Shown: positions 5,704 through 64,000 of the stretch, in pieces
How positions within the stretch are numbered: the first letter of the stretch is position 1
Layout: every line of letters starts with the position of its first letter
Source: an uncultured bacterium
GTDB taxonomy: Bacteria > B130-G9
NCBI GenBank assembly: GCA_965372715.1
Contig: CBDVDH010000003.1
Location: forward strand, 34,495 to 98,494
DNA: 64,000 nucleotides
Direction: 5' to 3'
Program-made: the position numbers and the translations under genes
Notes under the pieces: generated by a model
Told to the model about the DNA's origin: nothing
Database searches by the model: none
The model's input: only the letters and a program-made list of their open reading frames with translations

Positions 5704-5872
5704 TTCAGCACCGATTCTCACGAGCGTTATCACCGTCATGATTTGGCCAAGATTCATGTGGGTTTTTGTGGTAGTTCGAGGTTCGAATTGGATGGAGATT
5801 GTCTTGTCATTGAGCCAGGGGACGGCGACTGCCAACCGCCAACTGCCAACTTGCAGCCGCTCGATAAGACGG

Positions 5873-6994: not shown

Positions 6995-7003
6995 TCAATA
7001 GTT

Positions 7004-7156
7004 CCAAGTTTCAAGTTTCAAGTTCAAGGTCGAAGGCCCAAAGTCAGTTGTCAGTTGGCCGTATTCATCCTTCATGCTTCATCCCTCTTCTGTGTCTCTG
7101 TGTCTCTGTGGTTCACTGCAATCCGCAATCGGCAATCCGCAATCGGCAATCCGCAG
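7004..7156. repeat. Cluster of short triple-tandem motifs in the wecA-like/glf-like intergenic region
   Basis: CAAGTTTCAAGTTTCAAGTTCAAGG (7004-7029). CTGTGTCTCTGTGTCTCTGTGG (7090-7111). GCAATCCGCAATCGGCAATCCGCAATCGGCAATCCGCAG (7118-7156). Confidence 0.7.
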
Positions 7157-9999: not shown

Positions 10000-10428
10000 A
10001 TGAAACTATCAACACGGTCCAGATACGGACTCAGGGCAATGGTTTTTATAGCTCGCAATGCGGCGCGAGTCGTCTCGAGCGAGATCATCGCAGAGAATGA
10101 GGATGTCTCAAAGAAGTACCTCGACCGGATCCTGAACCAATTGAGGAGGTCCGGCCTGTTGAGAAGCGTCAAAGGGCAGGGTGGAGGATACGTTCTTTCG
10201 AGACCGGCGGACGAGATCCGAACCGATCAGATAATCGCGGCACTTGAGGGCAGTTTGTGCCTCGTTGCGTGCGTTGACGAGCCATCCCTATGCAGGAAAG
10301 CGGCAGACTGCCGCACGCGCAAAGTGTGGTCTCTTATTGCCTCGGCGGTCAGCGAGAGCTTGCGGGGTATTTCCCTTCTTGAGCTTGCGGTCGGGGAAGG
10401 AATGAAAGGGTGTCGCGGCCCACAGTAG
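10000..10428 (+). CDS. Rrf2-family transcriptional regulator (IscR/NsrR-like, putative Fe-S cluster ligands)
   Basis: N-terminal wHTH (MKLSTRSRYGLRAMVFIA...SSEIIAENEDVSKKYLDRILNQLRRSGLLRSVKGQGGGYVLSRP) is the Rrf2 signature. The Cys cluster CLVAC...C....C matches IscR-type cluster ligation spacing. Confidence 0.8.
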   Translation: MKLSTRSRYGLRAMVFIARNAARVVSSEIIAENEDVSKKYLDRILNQLRRSGLLRSVKGQGGGYVLSRPADEIRTDQIIAALEGSLCLVACVDEPSLCRKAADCRTRKVWSLIASAVSESLRGISLLELAVGEGMKGCRGPQ

Positions 10429-11297
10429 GACAACTCGGAGTCAAGAAGGAGTTTGCGCAAATCCCAACCGGCAGGGAGTTTTTGGGAAGGACTATGACGA
10501 GGCAGGGCGAAAGCACGGTTATGTTCTCTGGCGGACTCGATTCCACAACCACCGTCGTGTTGCTGTCCGAGGTCTATGAGAAGTTGCACCTTCTGACGTT
10601 TTGCAATGGCTATGGCCACTGTTTCGTGCGTTGGTCAGAGAAGCAAATGCCTAACTTCGACCGGATACTAGGGAAAGATCGCTATGTTCACATCATTCAA
10701 GACTGCTCGGACCTCTTTGAGCGACTTCTGATCGACACACTGCCCGGGGACTACCGAGCCTACAGGTCCAAGTTCATCTGGTGCATGGCCTGCAAGCTGG
10801 CGATGCACACGTGCACTATAATGTATTGTCTGGAGCACGGGATTCGGCATTCCTCGGACGGGTCATCCACTCAGACCAACTATTACGTGGAGCAGATGGA
10901 GGCGAACCTGAAGGCCATCAAAGACTACTACGGGGAGTTTGGGATAGATTTCTCGATGCCGGTTTACAGGGTTGGCAGTCGAGATGAGGAGAAGCGGATA
11001 CTTGCGCAGAAGGGAATCAAGAAGGTTGGCCTGAGCATCGCGGGCAGGAACCCAGGAACGCAGCCGCTGTGCGTGCCCGGCAACTTGATCTACCTTTTCT
11101 CGACGTTCTTCAAGATACACCCGAGATATGCCGAGCACGATGTTCTGCGATTTATCGACGAGAAGAAAAGAATTGCTGTGTCCTACATGAGAGAAAAGCT
11201 CGGCGAGAAGGGCTTGGACGTGGACCAGCTCGCTCTGAAATTGAAAGGAGGCGAGGCAGCAAGATGGCGTGCTGCGGACTTAGCGGCAAGGGCATGA
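10410..11297 (+). CDS. PP-loop ATP-pyrophosphatase superfamily protein (QueC/LarE/TtuA-like) with conserved CxxC...C; paralog 1
   Basis: PP-loop SGGLDS (MFSGGLDSTTTVVLL) with a QueC-like continuation (LHLLTFCNGYGH). Mid-protein CxxC (FIWCMACKLAMH) and a C-terminal GTQPLC. The true start is possibly the internal M at ~10494 (MTRQGESTVMFSGG). It overlaps the rrf2 stop. Confidence 0.65.
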   Translation: MSRPTVGQLGVKKEFAQIPTGREFLGRTMTRQGESTVMFSGGLDSTTTVVLLSEVYEKLHLLTFCNGYGHCFVRWSEKQMPNFDRILGKDRYVHIIQDCSDLFERLLIDTLPGDYRAYRSKFIWCMACKLAMHTCTIMYCLEHGIRHSSDGSSTQTNYYVEQMEANLKAIKDYYGEFGIDFSMPVYRVGSRDEEKRILAQKGIKKVGLSIAGRNPGTQPLCVPGNLIYLFSTFFKIHPRYAEHDVLRFIDEKKRIAVSYMREKLGEKGLDVDQLALKLKGGEAARWRAADLAARA

Positions 11298-11641
11298 CCT
11301 CAATGCTCGGGTTGCTCGTATTTGTAACTCTTTCGTTCATATTCGGAGGTCTGGGCGTTTTGTTGCTCGGCTTCCTCGGAGTGTTCTCCAAACGCTTCCG
11401 GTTCTGGGCTCGGACGCTCGTGACCGTGCTCTCGGTATCCGTGCCGCGGATGTTTCACGAGCTGCTCAACGATTCGTATTTCTGGCGGCCGGACCTCAAG
11501 TGCGTCGTTTCAGGGAAGCTCTTCGGCTACTCGCCGGCCTTCTCCGGATTTGTTTTCAAGTATTTCAATCTGTTCGTGATAGTAGGGATGTTCGGCCTAA
11601 TGGGTCTCCTGGCGGGCGCAATAGTCAAACTTGCGGGATGA
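11264..11641 (+). CDS. Small integral membrane protein (~125 aa, 3 predicted TM helices)
   Basis: AAGGAGG (11244-11250) upstream of ATG 11264. Hydrophobic segments LGLLVFVTLSFIFGGLGVLLLGFLGVF and FNLFVIVGMFGLMGLLAGAIV. It lies between PP-loop paralog 1 and the cysteine desulfurase. The alternative start is 11294. Confidence 0.4.
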   Translation: MACCGLSGKGMTSMLGLLVFVTLSFIFGGLGVLLLGFLGVFSKRFRFWARTLVTVLSVSVPRMFHELLNDSYFWRPDLKCVVSGKLFGYSPAFSGFVFKYFNLFVIVGMFGLMGLLAGAIVKLAG

Positions 11642-12866
11642 GAGCATGACTTTGGACGTTACGAGCATAAGAAAGCTCTTTCCTGCGCTCCAGGTTAAGG
11701 TCAAGAAGAAACCGGTCGTCTATCTGGACAACGCCTGCATGTCGCTGAAGCCGATTCCCGTTGTTGAGGCGATGAACGATTACTACTATTCATATCCGGG
11801 CTGTCACGGCAGAACGGCCTACTATTTCGGACGGCGCACCACGGAGGAGTATGACCGGGCTCGGGAACGGCTTGCCAGGTTGATCAACGCTCCCCAGTCC
11901 AAGGAGCTGATCTTCGTCAAGAACACCAGCGAGGGCCTGAACCTCGTCGCCAACTCGCTGCCCTTTTCGGAGGGCGATGCCGTGGTCACCACCAATGTGG
12001 AGCACAACTCCAACCTCCTGCCCTGGCAGGTGCTCAAGCGCCGGCGGAAAGTGGAGCACGTCATCGTGAAACTCAGAGAGGACCTGACGTTCGACCGCTC
12101 GGCCCTCACAGAGGCGATGTCGAGCAAGGTGAGGCTCGTCAGCGTGGCCCAAACGTCGAACCTGACGGGCGTGACGATGCCGGTCAAGGAAATCGCTGAA
12201 ATCGCCCACCGTCATGGCGCCCTGGTGATGGTCGATGGGGCACAGTCCGTGGCCCACAGCAAGGTTGACGTTCAGGACCTGGACATCGATATCCTCGTCT
12301 TTTCCGTGCACAAGATGATGGGCCCGACCGGCGTTGGCGTCCTCTGGGCAAAGGAGGAGGTGCTGAACAAGATGGAGCCGTTCATTGTGGGTGGTGAAAC
12401 TGTGCTGAACACGTTCTACGACAGCTATATCCCCGCCGGTCTGCCTGACCGATTCGAGGCGGGACTTCAGAACTACGCGGGGGCAATCGGGGCCGGAGTC
12501 GCGGCGGAATACCTGATGAATCTCGGGCCTGACGAGGTTCACGAGCACGAAGTGGCCCTCAATCGCATCATGACCGATATGCTCAAGGACATTGACGGTC
12601 TTAGCATAATCGGCCCAGACGCCCCTGAACTGCGCGGTGGGATTCTCAACGTGTCCGTCGATGGGATGAAGGCGCTGGAAGTCGCTCGCATACTCGATCA
12701 GGCCAACAACATCATGGTTCGGGCTGGCTACCTCTGCGTCCACTCGTGGTACAACGCCTGCGACTTGCCGCACTCAATCCGCGCCTCGGTCTATGTCTAT
12801 AACACGCCCGCCGAATGCGCGCTATTCGCCGACGTTCTGACCAAACTCGTCAAGCACTACCGGTAG
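11631..12866 (+). CDS. Cysteine desulfurase / class-V aminotransferase (SufS/NifS-like)
   Basis: PLP-lysine motif SVHKMMGPTGVGVL. Putative persulfide cysteine in RAGYLCVHS (compare SufS RSGHHCA). Full-length class-V fold (VYLDNACMS...TSEG.N.VA...DGAQSVAH). Confidence 0.85.
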   Translation: MRDESMTLDVTSIRKLFPALQVKVKKKPVVYLDNACMSLKPIPVVEAMNDYYYSYPGCHGRTAYYFGRRTTEEYDRARERLARLINAPQSKELIFVKNTSEGLNLVANSLPFSEGDAVVTTNVEHNSNLLPWQVLKRRRKVEHVIVKLREDLTFDRSALTEAMSSKVRLVSVAQTSNLTGVTMPVKEIAEIAHRHGALVMVDGAQSVAHSKVDVQDLDIDILVFSVHKMMGPTGVGVLWAKEEVLNKMEPFIVGGETVLNTFYDSYIPAGLPDRFEAGLQNYAGAIGAGVAAEYLMNLGPDEVHEHEVALNRIMTDMLKDIDGLSIIGPDAPELRGGILNVSVDGMKALEVARILDQANNIMVRAGYLCVHSWYNACDLPHSIRASVYVYNTPAECALFADVLTKLVKHYR

Positions 12867-12875
12867 GGGTTCTCT

Positions 12876-13691
12876 GTGTCTCAGTGTCTCTGTGGTGAGA
12901 GGATAGACGTCGTGAAGGAGAACGAACCGGAGCGGAGTGCGAGGAGGCCGGCTGTTACGTTGATGTATTCGGGCGGGTTGGATTCGACGGTCACGGCACT
13001 GACGCTTGCCGGGCAATACGACAAGGTTCATTTGCTCACTTACGCCCGGGGTTATGGTCACTGGTTCGTGGGCCGGTCAAGGGTGCGCGTCCCGGAGCTC
13101 GAAAAGCACCTCGAAAGGAGCGTTTTCACTCAGTTTAGAGCCAGCGTGAAGGGACTCTTCAAGAAGATCGTCCTCGATAGCTTCGTCGCGGATTTCAGGA
13201 AGTACAAAGCGTTGTTTATTGTCTGCGTGGGCTGCAAGATGGCGATGCACGCCCGTTCGGTGATCTACAACCTCGAACACGGAATCCCATGCGTGTCTGA
13301 TGGGTCCGCCGAGACGACGGCCTGGATGCCGGACCAGATGCCGGTCACGCTGGCCGAATACAAACGGCTTCACGAGGACTACGGGCTGACCTACTCGAAT
13401 CCTGTCTATCACTTCGGCACCCGGGAGAAGGCGCGTGAGACGCTTCGCGCGGCGGGCCTCTCGATGGGGCGCCGCATCGCGGACCGGGACTTCGGGACGC
13501 AGCCTGTCTGCCTCTTCGGCGACGTAATCACGATATTCCGCGAGTTCATGAAGGTCGGCCTCCCGCTGAAGGAGGAGAGCATCGTGGATTTCATGCGTGA
13601 GAAGCGGCCAATCCTCGACGACTACATCAAGGATTACTTTGTCCAGAACGGCCTTGATTTATACGAGCTGAAGGAGCGGGTGGCCCAGTGA
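12876..13691 (+). CDS. PP-loop ATP-pyrophosphatase superfamily protein with conserved CxxC...C; paralog 2
   Basis: LMYSGGLDSTVTALTL, VHLLTYARGYGH, FIVCVGCKMAMH, GTQPVCLFGD. Collinear with paralogs 1 and 3. Confidence 0.65.
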   Translation: MSQCLCGERIDVVKENEPERSARRPAVTLMYSGGLDSTVTALTLAGQYDKVHLLTYARGYGHWFVGRSRVRVPELEKHLERSVFTQFRASVKGLFKKIVLDSFVADFRKYKALFIVCVGCKMAMHARSVIYNLEHGIPCVSDGSAETTAWMPDQMPVTLAEYKRLHEDYGLTYSNPVYHFGTREKARETLRAAGLSMGRRIADRDFGTQPVCLFGDVITIFREFMKVGLPLKEESIVDFMREKRPILDDYIKDYFVQNGLDLYELKERVAQ

Positions 13692-13984: not shown

Positions 13985-15454
13985 CTATCCCCCCTTCATC
14001 TGCCCCTTCAATAGCTCAAGGTTCTCCCGGACAAGTCTCGTCTTCGGATGATCGTCGCCCAGGAACTTCCTGAATATTGCAATCGCCCGCTCATAGCACT
14101 CCTTCGCGCCGTTCAGATCGCCAAGGGCCTTAAGCACCAAGCCAAGATTATTCACGCAAGTAGCAACTGTCGGATGGTCCAGGCCATAGGAATCCTCAGC
14201 TATAGAACGACCCCGCTCACAAGACTTCTTAGCGCTATTCAGATTGCCAAGGGCCTGAAGCACTATGCCAAGATTGCTGACCCGAATGGCAACGTTCGGA
14301 TGGCCCGGGCCAAAAGCCTTCTCGTCGATAGCAAGCGCTCGCTCAATACACTTCTTCGCGCCATTCAGATTACCAAGGGCCTGAAGCACTATGCCAAGAT
14401 TGCTGACCCGAATCGCAACGTTCGGATGGTCCGAGCCAAAAGCCTTCTCGTCGATAGCAAGCGCTCGCTCAATAGACTTCTTCGCGCCATTCAGATCGCC
14501 AAGGGCCTGAAGCACTATGCCAAGATTGTTCAGGTGAGTCGCAACTTCAGGATGATCAGGGCCAAAAGCCTTCTCGTCGATAGCAAGCGCTCGCTCATAA
14601 CGCTCCTTCGCGCCGTTGAGATCGCCAAGGTCGCGAAGCACCGAGCCAAGATTGTTCACGTCCCTCGCAACATCGGGGTGGTCCGGGCCATAAGAAGCCT
14701 CGTCTATCTTAAGTGCTCGCTCAAAACGCTCCTTCGCGCCGTTGAGATCGGCAAGGTCTTGAAGCACCATGCCAAGATTGTTCACGTAAGCTGCAACTGT
14801 CGGATGGTCCGGGCCATAGCAAGCCTCGTGTACGGCAAGCGCCCGCTCATAACACTCCTTCGCGCCCTTCAGGTCACCAAGGTTCTGAAGTACCGAGCCG
14901 AGATTGTTCACGTCAGTCCCAACTCGAGCATGATCGGGGCCAAGAGCCTTCTCGTCGATGGCAATCGCTCGCTCAAAAGACTCCTTCGCCCCTTTCAGGT
15001 CACCAAGGTCCTGAAGTACCGTGCCGAGATTGTTCACAATCGTCGCAACCTCGGGATGATCTGGGCTATAGACCGCCTCATAGATCGCAAGCGCCCGCTC
15101 GTAACAGTCCTTGGCCTGTGAGAAGTCAGCGCGGCCTCCCAGATACAGGCCAGCCTGATTGAGCAGGCGCCTGAGAGCATTCGAAGCCAGGCCAATCGCT
15201 TCCGCGTGGCCGGCCGCGGCGAGCGCATGCGCTATCAGCCGGGAGCATTCGGACCAGGTCGTAACGTCATGACTGTCGTCCGGAAAGGCGTCGTTCAGTA
15301 GCTCGACTGCCGCCTCGACCAAATCAGTTTTGTTCTGACCTGACAGCCTGTCTCGCGCGACAGCCTGAAGCAATCGGTGCAGGCTGGCGTGGTTTCCTTC
15401 CCGGTCGATCAACGAGTAGCGCTTCAGGTTCTGGACGGCCTTGTCGAATCGCAT
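13985..15454 (-). CDS. TPR-repeat segment (C-terminal part of an interrupted TIR-NB-ARC-TPR STAND protein)
   Basis: About 10 tandem 42-aa TPR_10/12-like units (NNLG.VLQ.LGDL.GAKE..ERALAIDEKA.GPDHP.VA). It is in the same frame as the upstream NB-ARC ORF. The sequence just after the in-frame TAG (LKRYSLIDREGNHASLHRLLQAVARDRL) is the winged-helix motif normally contiguous with NB-ARC. Confidence 0.8.
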   Translation of the reverse strand: MRFDKAVQNLKRYSLIDREGNHASLHRLLQAVARDRLSGQNKTDLVEAAVELLNDAFPDDSHDVTTWSECSRLIAHALAAAGHAEAIGLASNALRRLLNQAGLYLGGRADFSQAKDCYERALAIYEAVYSPDHPEVATIVNNLGTVLQDLGDLKGAKESFERAIAIDEKALGPDHARVGTDVNNLGSVLQNLGDLKGAKECYERALAVHEACYGPDHPTVAAYVNNLGMVLQDLADLNGAKERFERALKIDEASYGPDHPDVARDVNNLGSVLRDLGDLNGAKERYERALAIDEKAFGPDHPEVATHLNNLGIVLQALGDLNGAKKSIERALAIDEKAFGSDHPNVAIRVSNLGIVLQALGNLNGAKKCIERALAIDEKAFGPGHPNVAIRVSNLGIVLQALGNLNSAKKSCERGRSIAEDSYGLDHPTVATCVNNLGLVLKALGDLNGAKECYERAIAIFRKFLGDDHPKTRLVRENLELLKGQMKGG

Positions 15455-15502
15455 TCTGTCTTTGGCCGCGGCGGCAAGCGAACGCGGCAGAAAGCGCGCG
15501 CC

Positions 15503-16903
15503 CTAGCGGATCACGTCCAGCGGGATTCTGTCCGGCGCGAAGAAGGCGAAGAGATTCATCAATTCTGCCGCAACGGGGCGTTCCTCTTTGAACTTCTCTG
15601 ATGTGATCTCCCAGGTGGTTGCGACGGATTTCTCGTACGGGTCCAAGTTAGAGCATCGCTCCAGAAGCTCCTTCTGCCGCTTTCGAAAGAGATCGAGGTA
15701 GTCTGAGGCGGAGCAACCCGTCTCCTCCAGGTAGGCCGCCGCCTGTTCCAGCGCGAGCGGAAAGTCGCCGAGCTCCCTCGAAAGCTCGCGGAAACCCGCA
15801 TCGTCCTCTCTGCCCGTTCGTTTGCCAATGAACTCGACGGATTTGTCAGGCTCAAACTCCTTCACCTTGATCGGCTGCGCGATGCCCCTGAAGCTCGGAT
15901 TCCGAGAGGTCGCGATCACGTGGCCTTTGCCGCCCTCTGGAATCAAGTCGGCAATGTCGCTTGGCTCACAGACGTTGTCGAAGACGAGAAGCCAACCTCG
16001 CCGCCGCCCGAGCTCCCTTCTCACCGCCTCAATGGCTTCGGGCTGGTTCATGGGATCGATGCCCGGCAGCTTAAGCTCCGCGCCCAGTGAGGCATAGTCG
16101 TCCCGCAGCGTTGGGGCAAGCTCGGACCTCATCCACCAGACGATCTCGTAGTCGGCGCAGTGCCGATACACGTATTCGAGCGCAATCTGCGTCTTCCCGA
16201 TGCCGCCCAGGCCGTGCATCGCCTGTGATATGACGCCGACCTTGCCAGAACTCAATGCACTCTCCAACCTGGCAAGATGCTCCTCGCGGCCCGTGAAGTT
16301 GCGGTTCCTCGAATGCGGCACGTTCCAGACCGGGGGCAATGCACCGGGGAAACGCCGACCTGGAGGCTCTTTAGCCACATCCTCGGCAATGCCCGGAAAT
16401 TCGGGCCTGGTGGTCGCTTCGCTCGGGCCCATGAGATCGGCAAGCAGTTTTGCTCTGGCTTGGTCTTCATTCAGGGCCGCCAGATTGATGTACTTCCTGC
16501 CCGAGAGAATCCCGAGCGGCGTGTCCTTATCAATCAAGACCGGGACAAATCGTGAAGGCTGACCTTCTTCATTTGTGTAGAGAGCGGACGATATCTCGTC
16601 CCAAACAGCACGAGATGCTAACGAACGAGGGGAGAGCAGAACCATGACGCGCTCCGCCTCGAGCGAGGCGTCATACATGTGCTTGTGGATGTTCTCTCCG
16701 GTCCCGAAGTCCCTTTTGTCTCGAATATAAGTGTAATTCACGCCGTCCAACTGCCAGCAGATCCAATCGGCCCACTGCGAATCGCCATGAGAGTAGCTTA
16801 TGAAAAAGTCCTTCATCTCAAATCCAATTGTGGTGCGAACGGGCGTAATAACCGACAAGAGGAAAGAATGAGCTATTCGAGGCCCGAAATCAATGAATAT
16901 CAA
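15503..16903 (-). CDS. TIR domain + NB-ARC (STAND) ATPase segment; the ORF terminates at an in-frame TAG 16 codons before the TPR ORF
   Basis: TIR signature FFISYSHGDSQWADWICWQLD. P-loop GLGGIGKTQIALEY, Walker B LLVFDNV and a GHVIATSRN (RNBS-like) motif. The stop TAG at 15503-15505 is in frame with the 13985..15454 ORF. Confidence 0.75.
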   Translation of the reverse strand: MIFIDFGPRIAHSFLLSVITPVRTTIGFEMKDFFISYSHGDSQWADWICWQLDGVNYTYIRDKRDFGTGENIHKHMYDASLEAERVMVLLSPRSLASRAVWDEISSALYTNEEGQPSRFVPVLIDKDTPLGILSGRKYINLAALNEDQARAKLLADLMGPSEATTRPEFPGIAEDVAKEPPGRRFPGALPPVWNVPHSRNRNFTGREEHLARLESALSSGKVGVISQAMHGLGGIGKTQIALEYVYRHCADYEIVWWMRSELAPTLRDDYASLGAELKLPGIDPMNQPEAIEAVRRELGRRRGWLLVFDNVCEPSDIADLIPEGGKGHVIATSRNPSFRGIAQPIKVKEFEPDKSVEFIGKRTGREDDAGFRELSRELGDFPLALEQAAAYLEETGCSASDYLDLFRKRQKELLERCSNLDPYEKSVATTWEITSEKFKEERPVAAELMNLFAFFAPDRIPLDVIR

Positions 16904-35328: not shown

Positions 35329-36279
35329 ATGTCAGAGAATATGCTCGAGGCAGACCGACTCACGAAACACTTCTGGTTGAAGAGATCGGCGCTCTCCAGA
35401 GCGAAGCTAACTGCTGTGGATGACGTCTCGTTCTCAGTTCGGGAGGGGGAGACGTTTGCTCTCGTGGGCGAGTCTGGCTCAGGGAAGACGACGCTGGCCA
35501 TGTTGATGACCCGACTTCTTAACCCAGATGGGGGCACGGTTTGTTTCGAGGGCAAGGATGTCTTCTCCCTCGACAGGAAAGAGCTCTTAGCCTTCAGACG
35601 GTCTGTCCAGATGATATTCCAGGACCCATTCGCCTCGCTCGACCCCAGGATGAGGGTCGGGCAGATAGTCGCTGAGGGCATGCGAATACACCGACTCGGA
35701 GGCAGGGAGGAGCAGCGCAACCGCGTGGGTGAGCTATTGCACGTCGTCGGTCTTCCTACTGACGCTAAGGACAAGTTCCCACACGAGTTCTCCGGCGGTC
35801 AACGTCAGCGCATTGGCATCGCCCGAGCCCTCGCGGTTAAACCCAGATTGATCGTCGCGGACGAACCCGTCTCGGCGCTCGACGTCTCTGTTCAGGCCAA
35901 GATCCTGAATCTGTTAGTCGAGCTCAAAGCGAAGAGGCGCCTGACCTACGTAATCATCGCCCACAACATGCGAATCGTCGGCCAGATGGCGGATACGATT
36001 GCTGTCATGTATCTCGGGAGGCTTTTGGAGATTGCACCCGCACAGGAGCTCTTCGTGAGCCCGATGCACCCATACACGAAGCTTCTCCTCGCGTCGATCC
36101 CCTCGCTTGGAAGAGCTCCCACGCAGCCCGCCGCCGTCTCCCGGCGCCTACTGGATCCGGGCGGGTCAGGCTGCCAGTTCCGCGAGCGCTGTGCCGAGGC
36201 GCTGCCCCTATGCCAGAAGACCGAACCCGAACTCAAGAGCATCGGCGAAGGGCGACTCGTGGCCTGCCACCAGTTCTGA
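35329..36279 (+). CDS. ABC transporter ATP-binding protein (Opp/Dpp F-type with C-terminal oligopeptide-type extension), orphan
   Basis: Walker A GESGSGKTT, signature FSGGQRQRIGIARAL, Walker B LIVADEPVSALD. No adjacent permease genes. Confidence 0.85.
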   Translation: MSENMLEADRLTKHFWLKRSALSRAKLTAVDDVSFSVREGETFALVGESGSGKTTLAMLMTRLLNPDGGTVCFEGKDVFSLDRKELLAFRRSVQMIFQDPFASLDPRMRVGQIVAEGMRIHRLGGREEQRNRVGELLHVVGLPTDAKDKFPHEFSGGQRQRIGIARALAVKPRLIVADEPVSALDVSVQAKILNLLVELKAKRRLTYVIIAHNMRIVGQMADTIAVMYLGRLLEIAPAQELFVSPMHPYTKLLLASIPSLGRAPTQPAAVSRRLLDPGGSGCQFRERCAEALPLCQKTEPELKSIGEGRLVACHQF

Positions 36280-36470
36280 CGAGGCTGCAAGGGCCCTCAC
36301 AAGTCGCCTCGATCCCAATACTACCCGCGTAGGCCGCGTTATCCGTGACCGCAGGGGGGCATCGTGTGCCGCGTGAGGGCTTGTCCTTGGCAGCCTGCGA
36401 ACGCCGTCCCGTGTCCGTAAGTGTCCCCACTGCGGGCCAAAATCGCGCCCGAGGGTAGCTGGGCCGAATC

Positions 36471-37532
36471 CTATATGCCCAGGGTCTTTCTGTCCCTCTC
36501 GACCGTTTCTTGAGTTTCTTCTACAACCTCGAGAAAGGTCTCTCTGTCAAGCTCAAGAAAGGCGCTGGAATCGAGTTCGAGTATGTCCGCCTCGCTTTGG
36601 GGTTGCTTGTCGGGATGTGTCGAGAGGTGATAGGAAATCGCGTCCGAAACTCGAGCCAAGTGCGAAAGAATAGGCTCCTTCTTGTTGGCATTTGGGTTAT
36701 GATGGTGGAGAATCGCCTGCTCCAACACATCCGGGAAGTTCCATTTGTGGCAGAGAATCGCGCCCAGCTCGGAGTGGCTTATGCCAAGTACTCTCTGCTC
36801 AATCTCCTCGAAGGTCAGCTCGCCACTTTTCTTGAGAGCTATTAGATTGCGCACAGCTCCAGGGAGCTTGGTTTCGATGATGTTTTTTCCGATATCGTGG
36901 AGAAGGCCTACGATAAAGGCTTCTTCCACGAGTTGTTTCTTCTTTCGCTTAGCCAAGAGGCGGGCTGCGATGCCGGTTTCCACTGAATGCGCCCATAAGG
37001 TCTTGCCGGCGGCGGAGTAGCCGCGGACGCCGGACGAGTGCATACTCTTGACGGATGATGCGATGACGATCGTTTTGACTGTCGAGAAGCCCAATAGCAC
37101 GAGTGCGTCCGTCATGCTCGTTATCTGGCCGGCTCGTCCGTAAAGAGCAGAATTCGAGTACTTGAGCACCTTGGAGGCCACCGCTGAGTCCTTTAGGATC
37201 ACGTCTTCCATCTGCTTCATGGTGGTAGTCGGCAAAGCGGTGAGTTCCATGAGTTTGGTGGCAACGAATGGCAGGCTGGGAAGCTCCTTGACCTGCGTGA
37301 GCATCTTTCTTGCGTCATCCAGGCTTGCTGGGCTGCCTCCTTTTGCAGTGGCTCTGGGAGCCGCCGCGGCGGCCGTACTCACTGGTTTAATTCCGGAGGC
37401 GCCTGCGGCAGATACGCATACTAAGTGGCCTATTCTGCATTTTATGCACTTGAACTTGACTTTGGGGTTCGGAGTAATCTTGCTGGGGTCAGCTTTGAAT
37501 TCTATGCCGCAATGGTTACATTTGAAAAGCAT
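36471..37532 (-). CDS. Zinc-ribbon (MJ0042-type) + HDOD domain signalling protein
   Basis: N-terminal CxxC...CxxC (FKCNHCG...KFKCIKCR). The C-terminal HDOD domain has an HD-like motif (LLHDIGK). Confidence 0.6.
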   Translation of the reverse strand: MLFKCNHCGIEFKADPSKITPNPKVKFKCIKCRIGHLVCVSAAGASGIKPVSTAAAAAPRATAKGGSPASLDDARKMLTQVKELPSLPFVATKLMELTALPTTTMKQMEDVILKDSAVASKVLKYSNSALYGRAGQITSMTDALVLLGFSTVKTIVIASSVKSMHSSGVRGYSAAGKTLWAHSVETGIAARLLAKRKKKQLVEEAFIVGLLHDIGKNIIETKLPGAVRNLIALKKSGELTFEEIEQRVLGISHSELGAILCHKWNFPDVLEQAILHHHNPNANKKEPILSHLARVSDAISYHLSTHPDKQPQSEADILELDSSAFLELDRETFLEVVEETQETVERDRKTLGI

Positions 37533-37597
37533 TGTTTCTCCGTCCAGACTGTTTCTTGTCCATTATCAGCCGCTCGCTGAAAACACCTGAGAAGGAT

Positions 37598-38377
37598 TTA
37601 GAAGCCCTGCAACTCTGATAACAGCCCTATCTTCTCGGTCAAATCTTGTCCTAAGAGCTCGAAATGCCGATGAACGTGCCTCATCAGCGTCGGCTTCTTT
37701 TCAGCAACGTAATCCGCTATTGCCTTATCGGAAACCGGAAGCGAGACCTTAAAAAGCGACTCTCTCAGGAAAGTTAAAGCGTCTCCGTAGAAGCAGACTG
37801 GCTGCGTTCCGAGGTCCCGGCCCGCAACCTTGCGGCCCGTGCTGATACCCAGCTCCCTGAGCGCCTCGCGTTCATGCTCTCTGTCCTTGATCTTTACGAC
37901 CGGGTTAGAATAGCGAATACCAAAGGCCTCGTGCAACTGCCGATATCCCTCCAGCGTTACCGCAGCCTGGTCGGACATCCATTCGGTGGCGCCTGACGCG
38001 CCATCCGCGATGTTGGGTATCCCGTGCTCGAGACAATAAATCGCCCCTACTGTGTGCATCACGAGCTTGCAGCCAACGCAAATCACGAAGAGCCCCTTAT
38101 ACCTCAAAATGTCTCGGACGAGGGTGCGAAGGACAACCTGCCTGAAAAGCCCTTTTACAGAGATGATCGTGTGGGCGAACCTGTTCGCGTCAAGGCGGCC
38201 TTTCAGTTCCTCAAATCGCCTCGCGGTTCTCTCGATCTTGGTGTGGCCATAGCCCCTTGAAATCGAGAGAAGATGAACCTTCTCAAAGTCCTTCAAAAGA
38301 ACCGTCGCGGCAAGAGTGGAATCAAGCCCTCCCGAAAACAGAAGCACGACGGAGCTGTCTGATGCCATCTCATTCAT
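37598..38377 (-). CDS. PP-loop ATP-pyrophosphatase superfamily protein with conserved CxxC...C; paralog 3
   Basis: LLFSGGLDSTLAATVL, VHLLSISRGYGH, FVICVGCKLVMH, GTQPVCFYGD. The ATG at 38375-38377 (MNEMASD) abuts the ksgA stop (38380-38382). The longer ORF to 38419 would overlap ksgA. Confidence 0.65.
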   Translation of the reverse strand: MNEMASDSSVVLLFSGGLDSTLAATVLLKDFEKVHLLSISRGYGHTKIERTARRFEELKGRLDANRFAHTIISVKGLFRQVVLRTLVRDILRYKGLFVICVGCKLVMHTVGAIYCLEHGIPNIADGASGATEWMSDQAAVTLEGYRQLHEAFGIRYSNPVVKIKDREHEREALRELGISTGRKVAGRDLGTQPVCFYGDALTFLRESLFKVSLPVSDKAIADYVAEKKPTLMRHVHRHFELLGQDLTEKIGLLSELQGF

Positions 38378-38379
38378 TC

Positions 38380-39243
38380 TCAATGCAGCTTTTTTGCTTC
38401 GTGGTATCCAGCCATACAAGCCAGCTTCTCAAAGAGCGACACATATTCATCTACAGCAATCTCCTGAGGTCTGCAAGCGGGGGACATGCCTGATTGTCCC
38501 AGGAGCCTCTCAACGGCTTCCCTTTGATCGCGGAACGCCTCGCCCTGAGAGAGCGAATTGATAAGCGTCTTTCGCCTGTGGGCAAAGGCGGCTGTTACGA
38601 ATTCATCGAACCGTTTCAGCGTCTCTTGTGAAGTAAACGGGGGCGTTCGCGGCGTCAAAGCAACCACTGCGGAATCGACGTTTGGCCTCGGCCAAAACGC
38701 TGTTCGCGGCACCGTGAGAAGCCTCCGCACCTTCGTCCTCGCCTGTATAGTCACGGAAAGCCGGCCGTACTCCGGTGTGTTAGGCGCCGCCATGAGGCGT
38801 TCGGCCATCTCCCTCTGCCCCATAACGCGGATGTCGTCAATCCGCTCAAGCTGGCTCATCAGCGCTAGCAGGATATGAACGAACGAGCAATATGGCAGGT
38901 TGCCAACGACTCTCACCTTCTTGTTTGAGGCAAGTGAGAAGACGGCCTCAGTCAGATCGAGCTCCCTCGCGTCCCGACACACGGGGATGACGTTCGGACT
39001 GTCGCCGAATCGTTCTTTCAGCTGTTCATAGAGCCCTGCGTCCATCTCGACGGCATACACAACCTCTGCGTCATGGGCCAATAGCTCAGTCAGGCGGCCA
39101 TCACCGGCCCCGATCTCCACGACGATTCTGCCCCCAGGCTCAGCCAGTTCTGCGACCTTTTCTAGAAGATTCGGGTCGCTGAGAAAGACCTGGCCAAGCG
39201 ATTTCTTAGGTTCAAGCATCCCACAAAACTCGATAGACAACAT
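38380..39243 (-). CDS. rsmA: 16S rRNA (adenine1518/1519-N6)-dimethyltransferase RsmA/KsgA
   Basis: GQVFL..P.....V......G...VEIGAG.G.LT..L. N-terminus plus the NLPY motif (VVGNLPYCSF). Confidence 0.85.
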   Translation of the reverse strand: MLSIEFCGMLEPKKSLGQVFLSDPNLLEKVAELAEPGGRIVVEIGAGDGRLTELLAHDAEVVYAVEMDAGLYEQLKERFGDSPNVIPVCRDARELDLTEAVFSLASNKKVRVVGNLPYCSFVHILLALMSQLERIDDIRVMGQREMAERLMAAPNTPEYGRLSVTIQARTKVRRLLTVPRTAFWPRPNVDSAVVALTPRTPPFTSQETLKRFDEFVTAAFAHRRKTLINSLSQGEAFRDQREAVERLLGQSGMSPACRPQEIAVDEYVSLFEKLACMAGYHEAKKLH

Positions 39244-39376
39244 GCGTCATCCGCTTCTCCAAAGTGATTCACGTGCCGCGGTCTAATCCTGCAAAGACGG
39301 ATGATCAATGCGCTGCCTTCGCCCGATTATGCCCAGGCAGCAATGAGCAACCTCGGCGTCCACCGGCTCGCTTGAC

Positions 39377-40525
39377 TTGGCTGCCCTGCTTAGCTATTCT
39401 CCGGCCAAAACTTACCTAAGCTCGAATCTAATTCAACTGAGGCGGACAGTGCAAGCCTGGATTAACGAGAACCTACTTTGGACACAGTTCCTCGTTTGCG
39501 GCGCGGCAGTTGTTCTGGCCGGCATGAGACTCTCCCGGCTTGGCCACATAATAGGCGAAAAACTGAAGATAGGCAGCACCTGGATCGGGCTCGTGTTGCT
39601 GGCTGCCGTTACCTCCATGCCAGAGATGATCACGGGCTGCACGGCGGGCGCCATCGGGGCGCCAGACATAGCCATCGGCAATCTGTTCGGCAGCAACCTC
39701 TTCAACCTCGCGATACTGGGCATTCTCGGGCTAATGATGCCTCGGCTGGCGAAATGGAATGAGGAGGGACACAGGCACTTACTTTCGAGCGGCTTTAATC
39801 TATTCATAATCTCCGTTGCGCTTCTTGCGATCGTTATTCACAGAGTTACTCTCTCCGTGGGCGCGCCTCATAACCAGGCCAAAGTGCAATGGCCGATAGG
39901 AGTGGGCAGCGTCGTGCTGCTCGCTATTTATCTGCTCTCGATGGTCCTGATCTTCGTCCACGAAAGGAGCAACAGACCACGGGATGCTGAGGCGCTCGCC
40001 TACAAAGATGAGAAGCTCCCTGGCGTCTGCATCAAGTTCACGGTCTGCGCCGCGATAATCGTCGGCGCCGGCTGGCGAATGGTTGTCCTGGGCGACATCC
40101 TCGCGGAAATCCCCATCAACATCTTGGGGACGCGCCTCGTCCTGGGCCAGACCGTAATCGGCACGTTATTCCTTGCCGTTGCGACCTCGTTGCCCGAATT
40201 CACGGTTTGCTTCGCAGCAATCAAGATGCGCGCTGTGAATATGGCTATCGGCAACGTCTTCGGCAGCAACATCTTCAACATCGCGACCGTTTTCTTAGCC
40301 GACGTATTCTTCACAAAAGGCCCGATTCTGGCCCACATCAGCGGCATTCATCTTATCACAGGACTGATTGTCATCTTGATGAGCGTGCTCTTTATCTTGG
40401 GAAGCGCATACCGCCGCCTGTTCGTCGGGTTCAGGCAGATTCCTATCTCGATCGCCATCGTGGCCTTATGGCTTCTGGGCTGGCTCCTTATATTCATGTT
40501 CAGCGGCCAGGCCCCGCAGCCGTAG
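39377..40525 (+). CDS. Ca2+/cation antiporter (CaCA family, YrbG-like)
   Basis: Two alpha-repeat signatures (GNLFGSNLFNL and GNVFGSNIFNI) in a ~10-TM protein. The true start may be a downstream M. Confidence 0.75.
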   Translation: MAALLSYSPAKTYLSSNLIQLRRTVQAWINENLLWTQFLVCGAAVVLAGMRLSRLGHIIGEKLKIGSTWIGLVLLAAVTSMPEMITGCTAGAIGAPDIAIGNLFGSNLFNLAILGILGLMMPRLAKWNEEGHRHLLSSGFNLFIISVALLAIVIHRVTLSVGAPHNQAKVQWPIGVGSVVLLAIYLLSMVLIFVHERSNRPRDAEALAYKDEKLPGVCIKFTVCAAIIVGAGWRMVVLGDILAEIPINILGTRLVLGQTVIGTLFLAVATSLPEFTVCFAAIKMRAVNMAIGNVFGSNIFNIATVFLADVFFTKGPILAHISGIHLITGLIVILMSVLFILGSAYRRLFVGFRQIPISIAIVALWLLGWLLIFMFSGQAPQP

Positions 40526-40781: not shown

Positions 40782-41003
40782 TCATCCGGAGTGAACTAAG
40801 AGCTCTTCCCGAATCACATTGCGACCCTCAGCCTCGCGACGCGCCAATTCCCGATTGGCCTCAATGACGAGCTGCACTGCCTCCTTGAGATTCTCTCGCG
40901 CCTCATCGAGCGTTCGCGCCTGTGTATTCGCCCCGGGCAGTTCCTCAACGTATCCAACCCACCACTCGCCTTCTTGCTCGAAGACCGCCGTGAAATGCTC
41001 CAT
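40782..41003 (-). CDS. hicB: HicB-like antitoxin (UPF0150/RNase H-like fold)
   Basis: 73 aa. The HicB N-terminal pattern (FTAVFEQEGEWWVGYVEELPGANTQARTLDEARENLKEAVQLVIE) is present. The stop abuts the hicA-like frame. Confidence 0.55.
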   Translation of the reverse strand: MEHFTAVFEQEGEWWVGYVEELPGANTQARTLDEARENLKEAVQLVIEANRELARREAEGRNVIREELLVHSG

Positions 41004-41217: not shown

Positions 41218-42018
41218 CTACTCAGACTTGGGTCCAATATCGCTCAGATCGACACGCAACTCCTCGCGCGATGCGCCGCACCACCTGCACAGTAGTTCAC
41301 CGCCCGCCTCCTCAAATCGGGCCAGCACTTGGTTATGATAAGTGGCCAACCAATTGTATTTCGCCAGATTGCGGCTGTCCTCTTTGTGCTTCTTGCGGTT
41401 CCTCATGATGAGCTCTCTGTGAACCACTAGGCTTTCGCGCACAAGGTCAGGGTCCATTCCAAACTCCCAGAGCTGGCCAATGTTTCCAACTAGATAGTCA
41501 ACGAAGAACTGACCATCGTCGTCTCGCCATATGTACTTCATATCCCCTAATACAACGTTGTCATGAAGCCTCTGATGCACAGCTCCATCAATCAGCACGC
41601 GCGGATATACGGCGACTTTAGACTCTAGGTGGTAGGCCCTGTTCAATGCCGGACCAAAGATCATTTTATCCTCCACGAATATTTCTCCGACCGTGATCCC
41701 TCCTCGAACAATGACACCTTCTTGAATCAAGCTGCGTTGAATATGCATGATTGCATTGAGCTCAAGAATGACTTTTAGATTGACCTCATACCTGTCGTCT
41801 TCGTCGGAGATTCTTGAAGTCCTTACTATCGAGTCCGAGAAATTGATGTAACGCATTTCAAATACCTTCGGTGGTTCGTCGGGAATGGTCGCCTCGTCAC
41901 AGACCTGTATCAAGAATCCTATTATCCTCTTGATCTCATCAGGCGTTCGGGTCTCAACTATTTCCTTAAATCCCAGAATGTCGATGAATGTTACGATAGC
42001 TTTGATGTATGCTGCCAT
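41218..42018 (-). CDS. Stand-alone class III nucleotidyl cyclase-like domain protein (266 aa)
   Basis: Motif 1 is VTFIDILGF (compare AC/GC FTDIVGFT). Motif 2 is RGGITVGEIFVEDKMIFGPALNRAYHLESKVAVYPRVLIDGAVH (compare R.GIH.G.VV.G..G......FGDTVNTASRMES.G..G.I.VS). No sensor or effector domain is fused. Confidence 0.5.
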   Translation of the reverse strand: MAAYIKAIVTFIDILGFKEIVETRTPDEIKRIIGFLIQVCDEATIPDEPPKVFEMRYINFSDSIVRTSRISDEDDRYEVNLKVILELNAIMHIQRSLIQEGVIVRGGITVGEIFVEDKMIFGPALNRAYHLESKVAVYPRVLIDGAVHQRLHDNVVLGDMKYIWRDDDGQFFVDYLVGNIGQLWEFGMDPDLVRESLVVHRELIMRNRKKHKEDSRNLAKYNWLATYHNQVLARFEEAGGELLCRWCGASREELRVDLSDIGPKSE

Positions 42019-62828: not shown

Positions 62829-64000
62829 ATGAGCACCTCTGACCAGAAAGCGCAGCACATCGCCGGCCAGCGGGTAGTAGTGCTCGATTTCGGCTCGCAA
62901 TATACTCAGCTGATAGCAAGGAGAGTTCGGGAGAGCCGCGTTTTTTCCGAAATACTCCCCTACAACGCGGACGCATCGACGGTTCTTTCAGACGGCGTCA
63001 AGGGCATAATCCTCTCCGGCGGCCCGGGGAATATCTCCTCTGACGAGGCGCTGCTCCCGGACAAGCGAGTTCTCGGTGCGCCGGTGCCGATACTCGGTAT
63101 CTGCTACGGGATGCAGCTTCTGTGTTCGCATTTCGGCGGCGAGGTCAGCCGGGCATTGCGTCGGGAATACGGCGGCGCTCAGCTGTCGATACTGCATAAG
63201 GACGATCTTTTCAAGGGGATTCCCGGGGGCGGCGGGGTTGAGACGAAGGTCTGGATGAGCCACGGCGACCGTGTTGAATCTCTCGGACCTAACCTGAAGG
63301 CAATCGCAAAGACCGCAAACTCACCCAACGCCGCTATCCGGCACACCCGAAAGCCGATATTCGGTGTTCAGTTCCATCCCGAGGTTGCCCACACGCCTGA
63401 TGGGCAGAAGATACTGCGCAATTTCTTATTCGAGATATGCAAGTGCGAACCGACCTGGACCCCAGAATCGTTCATCGAACAGGAGATCAGAAAATGCAAG
63501 GAGCTCGTCGGTGACGGAAAGGTCGTGTGCGCCACTAGCGGGGGCGTGGACTCCACCGTTGTGGCGGTGCTTCTCGCTAGGGCCATCGGCGCCAATCTCA
63601 TCGCGATATTCGTCGATAATGGTCTCTTGCGCAAAAGCGAGGCGAAGGAGGTCGCAAGGATTCTCAGAGCTGACCTCGGAATCAACCTGACAGTCGTGAG
63701 CGCACGAGAGCGTTTTCTCTCCTCGCTGCGCGGCGTTTCGGACCCACAGGAGAAGCGCAAAATAATCGGCAACCTCTTCATCGAGGTCTTTGAGGAGTCG
63801 GCCAGTCCGCTTAAGGACTGCGAGTATCTTGCTCAGGGCACGCTCTATCCCGACGTGATCGAGAGCGTCTCAGTAAGAGGCCCTTCTGCACTCATTAAAG
63901 GCCATCATAACGTGTGGGGCCTGCCCGAACGGATGAGGCTCAAGCTCATTGAGCCGCTGCGGGAGCTCTTTAAGGACGAAGTCAGGCTCATCGGCAAGGA
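62829..64000 (+). CDS. guaA: GMP synthase (glutamine-hydrolysing) GuaA, 3'-truncated by the window edge
   Basis: GATase1 domain (LDFGSQYTQLIARRVRE..V.SEILPY ; catalytic GICYGMQLL ; HPEV). PP-loop ATP-PPase domain SGGVDSTV. The frame continues to the window end. Confidence 0.9.
   Translation, partial: MSTSDQKAQHIAGQRVVVLDFGSQYTQLIARRVRESRVFSEILPYNADASTVLSDGVKGIILSGGPGNISSDEALLPDKRVLGAPVPILGICYGMQLLCSHFGGEVSRALRREYGGAQLSILHKDDLFKGIPGGGGVETKVWMSHGDRVESLGPNLKAIAKTANSPNAAIRHTRKPIFGVQFHPEVAHTPDGQKILRNFLFEICKCEPTWTPESFIEQEIRKCKELVGDGKVVCATSGGVDSTVVAVLLARAIGANLIAIFVDNGLLRKSEAKEVARILRADLGINLTVVSARERFLSSLRGVSDPQEKRKIIGNLFIEVFEESASPLKDCEYLAQGTLYPDVIESVSVRGPSALIKGHHNVWGLPERMRLKLIEPLRELFKDEVRLIGK

Follow-up and report, generated by a model that had tools for sequence, protein, structure and literature searches.

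The 64,000-nucleotide stretch of DNA examined in this study (hereafter the window; positions 34,495 to 98,494 of contig CBDVDH010000003.1 in assembly GCA_965372715.1, from the uncultured bacterium B130-G9) carries a three-gene unit in which ksgA, encoding the 16S rRNA dimethyltransferase, is followed by a gene for a PP-loop ATP pyrophosphatase, here called P3, and then by a gene for a protein that joins a zinc ribbon to an HDOD domain. This trio is a conserved, lineage-specific operon of Candidatus Coatesbacteria, and P3 is probably an uncharacterised, iron-sulfur (Fe-S)-dependent relative of YcfA, an enzyme that makes 6-thioguanine nucleotides from free GTP as its substrate (PMC12494993). As to what P3 does, we consider it about evenly poised that the protein is an Fe-S-type thiolase of the YcfA family acting on a free nucleotide-like molecule, a substrate likelier than RNA. 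A small share of our expectation goes to RNA, and the remainder to a functional pairing of P3 with the HDOD protein and to chemistry that does not involve sulfur.

Organization and conservation of the ksgA operon

The unit occupies positions 36471 to 39243 of the minus strand and consists of three co-directional open reading frames (ORFs), isolated by flanking genes that both lie on the opposite strand (Table 1). A preliminary description of this stretch had called it a tight minus-strand operon with P3 starting directly behind ksgA, and the geometry bears this out: the ksgA stop codon (TGA) occupies positions 38382 to 38380 and the P3 start codon (ATG) begins at 38377, the third base past the stop, leaving a spacer of 2 nt. 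The program-listed ORF for P3 (37598-38419) begins at TTG, and the ATG at 38377 was chosen from the N-termini of orthologs. Translation of P3 is probably coupled to that of ksgA. The spacer between P3 and the HDOD gene is longer and holds only a ribosome-binding site, GGAG, 5 nt upstream of the HDOD start codon (ATG, 37532); in an alignment of eight loci the GGAG and the ATG are its only conserved parts, and on these grounds a conserved RNA element or attenuator at this position was rejected. Rfam models and a tRNA gene search found no match anywhere in the window, while a promoter and terminator scan of positions 36200 to 39500 found nothing informative inside the unit and no terminator-like site. 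The product of the first gene scores 215.3 bits against the RsmA equivalog model TIGR00755 (cutoff 171) and 164 bits against PF00398. An Erm identity was rejected for this protein, as all Erm models scored far under their cutoffs.

Orthologs of P3 form 14 clusters (62-100% identity) in a collection of 5.8 billion protein clusters, and every named one bears the label Candidatus Coatesbacteria. By a genome scan and exact-protein look-ups, nine distinct lineages were found to carry ksgA, P3 and the Zn-ribbon-HDOD gene in this order (the window itself and the loci L001, L083, L002, L080/L084, L003, L004/L075, L076 and L074), and the trio was seen in Coatesbacteria-type genomes only. The gap between ksgA and P3 ranges from -8 to +22 nt in eight of these lineages; in L083, as called, it measures 69 nt. 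Between P3 and the HDOD gene the gap is 57 to 94 nt. Over the same set the identity of KsgA to the window's copy falls to 52-54% and the flanking genes vary, with an exchanger gene on the far side of the HDOD gene in L004 and the unit placed between pheT/exchanger genes and serS in L080. The preliminary description had proposed that the adjacency of ksgA and the PP-loop gene, if found nowhere else, should be regarded as a chance juxtaposition; it recurs in the nine lineages, and that test does not refute it. In the deep lineages P3 is 60-70% identical, compared to 46-54% for KsgA and 55-60% for the HDOD protein, and this higher conservation indicates that P3 is under strong purifying selection. 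A scan of metagenome contigs with the family alignment returned no P3 orthologs among the matches listed, only distant PP-loop proteins.

One locus on a 143-kb contig (L077/L078, positions 4867-7056) lacks P3; an exchanger gene and ksgA are followed there, after 276 nt, by a gene for a Zn-ribbon-HDOD protein that is 58% identical to the one in the window. No relic of P3 was found by tblastn in the 276-nt gap of L078 at E values up to 10. In a rooted neighbor-joining tree of the HDOD proteins, L078 is basal to the P3-bearing lineages, with support that becomes ambiguous after rerooting. Either P3 was inserted into a pre-existing pair of ksgA and HDOD genes, or it was cleanly lost once. Since this pair occurs without P3, the link between ksgA and the HDOD gene is independent of P3, and of the two other genes of the unit it is the one for the Zn-ribbon-HDOD protein that pairs more stably with ksgA in the Coatesbacteria clade. 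To our knowledge, there is no prior description of a YcfA-like thiolase and a Zn-ribbon-HDOD protein encoded beside ksgA.

Relationship of P3 to YcfA and to other PP-loop proteins

No curated Pfam or NCBIfam family model spans the full length of P3. Among solved structures its standout relative is YcfA of Erwinia amylovora (PDB 9KQ6, 9KQ7, 9KQ9 and 9KQD), which is matched by the single P3 sequence in phmmer (E 5.4e-17), by a family profile (E 9e-27) and, in a Foldseek search with an AlphaFold2 model of P3 (predicted local distance difference test score 88.7), by fold (E 2e-13; target-normalised template modelling score 0.86-0.89). This significant full-length similarity in both sequence and fold places P3 in the YcfA family. 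All of the top fold matches are members of the PP-loop superfamily, and the signature SGGLDS follows the strand formed by residues 9-13 in the model, as in that superfamily, where SGGxDS closes the first strand of a Rossmann-like fold. The motif is invariant in an alignment of 33 sequences, and its D19 is the equivalent of the catalytic Asp19 of YcfA.

The window encodes two further proteins of this kind, P1 and P2, which flank the gene for a cysteine desulfurase; they are 32% and 46% identical to P3, respectively, and all three have SGGLDS, GYGH, CxxCK and GTQPxC in common. P3 had been introduced earlier as the third CxxC...C PP-loop paralog of this desulfurase-linked pair, and both the paralogy and this motif pattern hold, the PP-loop being SGGLDS and the cysteines C100-V-G-C103 and C195. 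A nucleotide pattern for the PP-loop has five matches in the window compared to 0.32 expected, namely P1, P2, P3, guaA and one spurious frame. The guaA match, read by eye, is the SGGVDS PP-loop of the C-terminal ATP-pyrophosphatase domain of GMP synthase (63450-64000, plus strand); this gene is cut by the end of the window and is unrelated to the YcfA-like paralogs.

Two P3 orthologs (P0005 and P0008) bear the NCBI name 7-cyano-7-deazaguanine synthase, which, judged by sequence, is an over-annotation from the shared PP-loop. The Pfam QueC model (PF06508) scores 26.3 bits on P3, over its gathering threshold of 22, and covers only profile positions 2-60 of 210, while the NCBIfam QueC model (TIGR00364) gives 22.8 bits against a cutoff of 150.3. 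A QueC identity was therefore rejected, as the equivalog model fails and the match is confined to about 60 N-terminal residues. P3 is also under the Pfam cutoffs for ThiI and DUF7411, and every NCBIfam equivalog is far under its threshold (for example, TIGR00342 for ThiI, 17.9 bits against 264.5).

The partial QueC match bears on the possibility that the three cysteines of P3 form a structural or zinc site and that the protein carries out PP-loop chemistry without sulfur, such as amidation or the nitrile formation of QueC and ArtA. QueC binds zinc through cysteines, and the fold search with P3 lists both this enzyme and the nitrile synthetase ArtA with its lower-scoring matches. Against this, the one QueC model that passes does so in the N-terminal PP-loop region only, the position of the cysteine triad and its variation between cysteine and aspartate are those of Fe-S thiolases, the gene for a SufS-type desulfurase lies between those for P1 and P2, and YcfA, which is far closer to P3 than QueC, is a thiolase. 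We regard chemistry without sulfur as the least probable of the alternatives weighed in this study.

A cysteine triad predicted to hold an iron-sulfur cluster

The first two cysteines of P3 lie at the N-terminus of a helix (residues 97-118) and the third lies in the invariant motif GTQPxC; within the 33-sequence alignment C103 is invariant and C100 is at least 90% conserved. Searched with a profile, 1.84 billion cluster representatives yielded 701 family members at E<1e-3, 443 at E<1e-10 and 132 at E<1e-30. Among 138 full-length representatives, 116 have all three cysteines (CCC, the Cys3 form) and 12 have aspartate at the first position (DCC), while six have one or none of the triad cysteines. 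Four of these six have none (P0086, P0151, P0096 and P0182), and all four carry Arg18, as does YcfA. The PP-loop and the CxxC are about 85 residues apart and the CxxC and the third cysteine about 92-95, and some P2 orthologs hold exactly three cysteines in total.

This CxxC+C (or DxxC+C) arrangement, which P1 and P2 share with P3, is the one conserved in Fe-S PP-loop enzymes that insert sulfur. The cluster ligands of MnmA fall into C-type and D-type classes (PMC8053098), archaeal TtuI has a CXXC+C triad (PMC9825150), and CtaC, a thioamide synthetase that does not act on RNA, has its own longer-spaced triad of C154, C157 and C284 (PMC6772006). From motif, spacing and precedent, C100, C103 and C195 are predicted to hold a [4Fe-4S] cluster. 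The triad would lie near the ATP site, as C195 follows by three residues Q192, which aligns with Glu183 of YcfA. A PDB sequence search comparing the triad region of P3 with TtuA and TtcA returned YcfA as the sole match and did not demonstrate positional homology to TtuA.

The Cys3 form is probably the common and ancestral, Fe-S-using state of the family, with YcfA a derived branch in which the cluster was swapped for cysteine addition. A description of YcfA in 2025 set it apart as a distinctive way of making thioamides that is independent of persulfide; the census suggests that it is a rare derived offshoot, because only four of the 138 representatives lack the triad cysteines altogether compared to the 116 that have the full set.

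The active site of P3 compared to that of YcfA

YcfA adenylates the C6 carbonyl of free guanine nucleotides and adds L-cysteine to it directly, after which YcfC, a pyridoxal 5'-phosphate (PLP) enzyme without the desulfurase cysteine, cleaves the adduct (PMC12494993). The roles of the YcfA residues were taken from the same work and their equivalents in P3 from HMMER and MAFFT alignments. Residues that handle ATP and the base are largely kept. Asp19 of the ATP site corresponds to D19. Glu134 and Gln135, which contact and deprotonate the base in YcfA (Glu134 acts on the guanine ring as general base, and Gln135 brings ATP and base into alignment), correspond to D136 and Q137; both are at least 90% conserved among the 33 aligned sequences, and of the 138 family representatives 67 have E and eight have D at position 136, while 95 have Q at position 137. 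Of the two phosphate anchors of YcfA, Lys169 corresponds to R170, which keeps the basic character, and Lys180 is without a clear equivalent. Glu183, which holds the Mg-ATP phosphates, corresponds to Q192 of the invariant GTQPxC, and Phe132, the remaining base contact alongside Glu134 and Gln135, aligns to Met134 with Trp133 adjacent.

The residues that position and activate L-cysteine in YcfA (Arg18, Tyr128 and Gln129; PMC12494993) are lost from P3, where they correspond to Leu18, Ala130 and Thr131, with Leu18 invariant in the 33-sequence alignment. Two cysteines are gained in P3, C100 and C103, where YcfA has Leu and Glu, and the third, C195, is gained in the active-site region. The ksgA unit also has no PLP gene that could supply a lyase of the YcfC type. 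YcfA is a tetradecamer built of two heptameric layers, between which the active sites lie (PMC12494993), and its interface residues D166, Y170 and L173 correspond to E167, E171 and R174 of P3.

Most likely, P3 would adenylate a carbonyl group, of the lactam or amide kind, on a nucleobase-type substrate and exchange its oxygen for sulfur. Unlike YcfA, which uses free L-cysteine and a C-S lyase, P3 would rely on a cluster on C100, C103 and C195 to hand over sulfur as sulfide or persulfide, in the manner of TtuA, TtcA, NcsA, MnmA, archaeal TtuI, CtaC and Fe-S LarE. The substrate is likelier to be a free nucleotide-like small molecule than RNA, and an Fe-S-type branch of the YcfA family may have been recruited into the Coatesbacteria-specific ksgA operon.

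Sulfur supply, the P1/P2 locus and other features of the window

The sulfur could come from the SufS-type desulfurase encoded with P1 and P2 or from ambient sulfide; P3 has no desulfurase of its own, and supply by SufS in trans or as sulfide is plausible. The window's desulfurase is a type-II SufS (E 8.6e-86 to SufS of Bacillus subtilis) in which the PLP lysine and the catalytic cysteine align with those of the B. subtilis enzyme (RAGYLCVHS versus RAGHHCAQP). The locus, comprising an Rrf2 regulator, P1, a small membrane ORF, SufS and P2, recurs in L006, L007 and L085 and in part in L005, while the SufS-P2 pair is also present in a Schekmanbacteria metagenome-assembled genome (MAG; L086), which belongs to another candidate phylum. 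Three genomes (the window's, JAFGIT and JAGHCW) have both P3 and the P1/P2 locus.

Table 1. Features of the ksgA-P3-HDOD unit, its flanks and the P1/P2 locus in the 64-kb window
Feature	Position	Strand	Evidence or remark
Rrf2 regulator	10000-10428	+	Pfam Rrf2
P1, PP-loop paralog	10410-11297	+	
ORF of about 190 aa between P1 and desulfurase, membrane-spanning by eye		+	No Pfam match
SufS-type cysteine desulfurase	11631-12866	+	Pfam Aminotran_5
P2, PP-loop paralog	12876-13691	+	
ABC ATPase gene, flank on the HDOD side	35329-36279	+	
Zn-ribbon, Ala/Pro-rich linker and HDOD protein, 353 aa	36471-37532	-	PF08668, HD; third gene of unit
HDOD domain, residues 84-280, with H...HD...H...HH...D residues	36693-37283	-	PF08668
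N-terminal four-Cys zinc ribbon, C5-x2-C8...C29-x2-C32	37434-37532	-	Sequence
P3-HDOD spacer, 65 nt, holding only a ribosome-binding site (GGAG, 37538-37541)	37533-37597	-	P3 stop TAA at 37600-37598
P3 (259 aa), single-domain member of the YcfA family of PP-loop ATP pyrophosphatases and predicted thiolase of [4Fe-4S] type	37598-38377	-	
C195, third triad residue, in invariant G-T-Q-P-x-C	37793-37795	-	33-sequence alignment
D136-Q137, equivalents of YcfA Glu134/Gln135	37967-37972	-	HMMER alignment to YcfA
C100-V-G-C103, first two triad residues	38069-38080	-	Sequence
PP-loop S15-G-G-L-D-S20 (ATP alpha-phosphate/adenylation site)	38318-38335	-	Pattern match
ksgA/rsmA, 16S rRNA A1518/A1519 dimethyltransferase, 287 aa	38380-39243	-	TIGR00755, PF00398; first gene of unit
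Na/Ca exchanger gene, divergent, 133 nt upstream of ksgA	39377-40525	+	

Two groups of neighbouring ORFs were noted in passing. Just downstream of P2 and convergent with it, positions 13985 to 16903 (minus strand) hold an ORF with TIR_2 and NB-ARC domains (15503-16903) followed by one with eight TPR_12 stretches (13985-15454); together they resemble a STAND-type TIR NTPase that is encoded by two genes or by one that has been split. The interval from the exchanger gene to nnr (NAD(P)HX repair) contains, also on the minus strand, a small HicB/UPF0150-like antitoxin-type ORF under the Pfam cutoffs (40782-41003) and a 266-aa ORF with no Pfam match (41218-42018).

The substrate of P3: free nucleotide or RNA

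The neighbours of the wider family provide some guidance on substrates. Members outside the clade adjoin NUDIX, TudS, SufS-like, radical S-adenosylmethionine or carbamoyltransferase genes, and in the loci examined none is beside ksgA or any RNA-modification gene. In an archaeal MAG (JAGVON010000049, L009:3183-4312) a Cys3 family gene is followed by a gene for TudS (PF04463, 156 bits), and in a Pseudomonadota MAG (L008:2061-4113) two sub-threshold TudS copies come after a Cys3 family gene. TudS is a thiouracil and 4-thio-UMP desulfidase (PMC10611767). The adjacency of a putative thiolase and a desulfidase hints at thiouracil or 4-thio-UMP metabolism in the YcfA family.

Several points weigh against reading P3 as an Fe-S thiolase of a free nucleotide-like substrate and, in part, favor RNA. 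The binding of an Fe-S cluster is itself something that we infer from sequence and analogy, and we know of no Cys3 member of the YcfA family that has been characterised biochemically. An enzyme of the secondary-metabolite type would not usually show conserved coupling of its translation to that of an rRNA methyltransferase, and the high conservation of P3 would also fit a housekeeping role in RNA modification. The second-best structural match of P3 is the tRNA enzyme ThiI. Desulfurase-thiouridylase pairs preceded by Rrf2, such as cymR-yrvO-mnmA of B. subtilis, are tRNA systems, and the P1/P2 locus resembles them in its layout of Rrf2, desulfurase and PP-loop genes. In addition, TtcA, which acts on tRNA, likewise consists of a catalytic domain alone.

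These observations, some of them shared, bear on the alternative that P3 is an RNA thiolase which makes a thionucleoside in tRNA or rRNA and is co-expressed with KsgA since both mature the translation apparatus. Beyond the match to ThiI and the Rrf2 layout, it would account for the close ksgA-P3 adjacency in nine lineages despite the divergence of KsgA to about 52% identity and for the conservation of P3 above that of KsgA, and the CxxC+C/DxxC+C triad is a hallmark of [4Fe-4S] tRNA thiolases. We nevertheless consider it unlikely. The closest characterised homolog, YcfA, uses free GTP. P3 starts at its PP-loop and has no THUMP or NFLD domain, zinc finger or other RNA-binding module, while all TtuI enzymes carry NFLD and THUMP (PMC9825150). 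The isoelectric point varies from 6.0 to 9.4 among P3 orthologs, although isoelectric point and net charge are uninformative as proxies for RNA binding. The arrangement was seen in one candidate phylum only, no family member outside the clade adjoins ksgA at the loci examined, and L077/L078 keeps ksgA and the Zn-ribbon-HDOD gene without P3. Operons containing ksgA elsewhere also mix functions and hold unrelated genes, as in pdxA-ksgA-apaG-apaH of Escherichia coli, and we know of no thionucleoside in bacterial rRNA.

Co-transcription with an rRNA-modification gene had been taken in the preliminary description as a hint that P3 acts on RNA. The adjacency behind this hint is conserved, and nothing beyond the adjacency came to its aid, with the YcfA homolog using free GTP; RNA is a possible but less likely substrate, to which it is gene order that points. 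We read the coupling of ksgA and P3 as co-expression with a housekeeping gene and not as a sign of a common RNA substrate. The more specific form of the RNA proposal has P3 install a thionucleoside as a [4Fe-4S] thiolase acting together with KsgA on the small ribosomal subunit, or on tRNA; it is doubtful and is given lower weight than RNA thiolation in general. If it were true for 16S rRNA, bacteria would have yielded their first thiolated rRNA nucleoside, and the responsible enzyme would belong to a lineage whose sole other known role is in a free-nucleotide antimetabolite pathway.

The Zn-ribbon-HDOD protein and its relation to P3

The third gene was described at the outset as encoding a Zn-ribbon-HDOD protein, and this identification stands: by sequence it has an ordinary HDOD domain (PF08668, 184 bits over profile positions 1-196 of 196; HD, 38 bits; PDB HDOD structure 3hc1, E 2.5e-27) with an unusual N-terminal zinc ribbon. 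The Zn_ribbon_4 match (20.9 bits, E 3e-4) is below the model cutoff, and the same family is flagged on orthologs. Full-length orthologs form 12 clusters, after which the next relatives are stand-alone HDOD proteins at about 40% identity; at L081, the single locus of such a protein that was examined, ksgA is not adjacent.

It is possible that P3 and this protein form a functional pair in which a thiolated nucleotide is hydrolysed or sensed by the HD-type domain, with ksgA only supplying the promoter. The 6-thioguanine clusters pair a thiolase with a NUDIX phosphohydrolase (YcfA with YcfB, and TgsB with TgsC/E), and in Lachnospiraceae/Clostridia loci (L010:5824-7027 and L011) a NUDIX gene overlaps the one for a distant YcfA-family protein, a PP-loop-NUDIX pairing like that of ycfA/ycfB and tgsB/tgsC. 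The ORFs upstream of this pair resemble serine recombinases by eye, and it may be on a mobile element. The HDOD protein keeps the full H...HD...H...HH...D set and scores on the HD model, and its narrow distribution nearly equals that of P3 (12 versus 14 clusters). We know of no established enzymatic activity for HDOD domains, nor of any demonstration of catalysis by them. A mechanistic study of 2025 presents the HDOD protein SadB as a proteolysis adaptor (PMC12075610). At L077/L078 the HDOD gene is beside ksgA in the absence of P3, and so does not depend on it, and in the trio the HDOD gene has its own ribosome-binding site after a non-conserved spacer of 57-94 nt. A functional pair seems improbable, somewhat more so than an RNA substrate and less so than joint action of P3 with KsgA on the small subunit or tRNA.

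Implications and comparison with known systems

Coatesbacteria encode three Cys3 paralogs of the YcfA family, two flanking a SufS-type desulfurase and one joined to ksgA. The substrate of P3 would define the ancestral chemistry of the family and settle whether any member acts on RNA; it might also uncover, in an uncultured phylum, thionucleotides or thio-metabolites that are new. Its identification would correct the recurring mis-annotation as 7-cyano-7-deazaguanine synthase. QueC resembles P3 in its PP-loop N-terminus.

Compared to the Fe-S thiolases TtuA, TtcA, NcsA/Ctu1, MnmA and TtuI, P3 has the same PP-loop and a similar spacing of the CxxC/DxxC and the third cysteine, and the alternation of C-type and D-type members in its family is also that of MnmA. 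By analogy with the [4Fe-4S] tRNA thiolases, P3 would be expected to adenylate a base carbonyl and then transfer sulfur from the free iron of the cluster. It differs from these enzymes in lacking the zinc fingers of TtuA, the NFLD and THUMP domains of TtuI and the C-terminal tRNA-binding domains of MnmA. LarE differs in acting on a nicotinic-acid-derived cofactor precursor, and CtaC is larger than P3 and acts on a peptide tethered to a carrier protein. No genes for carrier proteins or of the nonribosomal peptide synthetase type were found near P3, and no lar genes were seen; a CtaC-like identity was rejected on spacing, size and the lack of carrier-protein genes.

YcfA resembles P3 in being a single-domain PP-loop enzyme and in having K-x3-H after the CxxC position, while P3 has about 40 additional C-terminal residues and is neighboured by ksgA and an HDOD gene, not by the PLP enzyme, NUDIX hydrolase or exporter genes found with YcfA. 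The P1/P2 pair is closer to YcfA-YcfC and to the staphylococcal TgsB-TgsA in this respect, as it too is encoded beside a PLP class-V enzyme, although YcfC is without the persulfide cysteine that the desulfurase of the window keeps. As for the operon itself, the partner genes in pdxA-ksgA-apaG-apaH differ from those of the Coatesbacteria trio, but in E. coli, too, ksgA is co-transcribed with genes whose products handle nucleotides and do not act on the rRNA that KsgA modifies.

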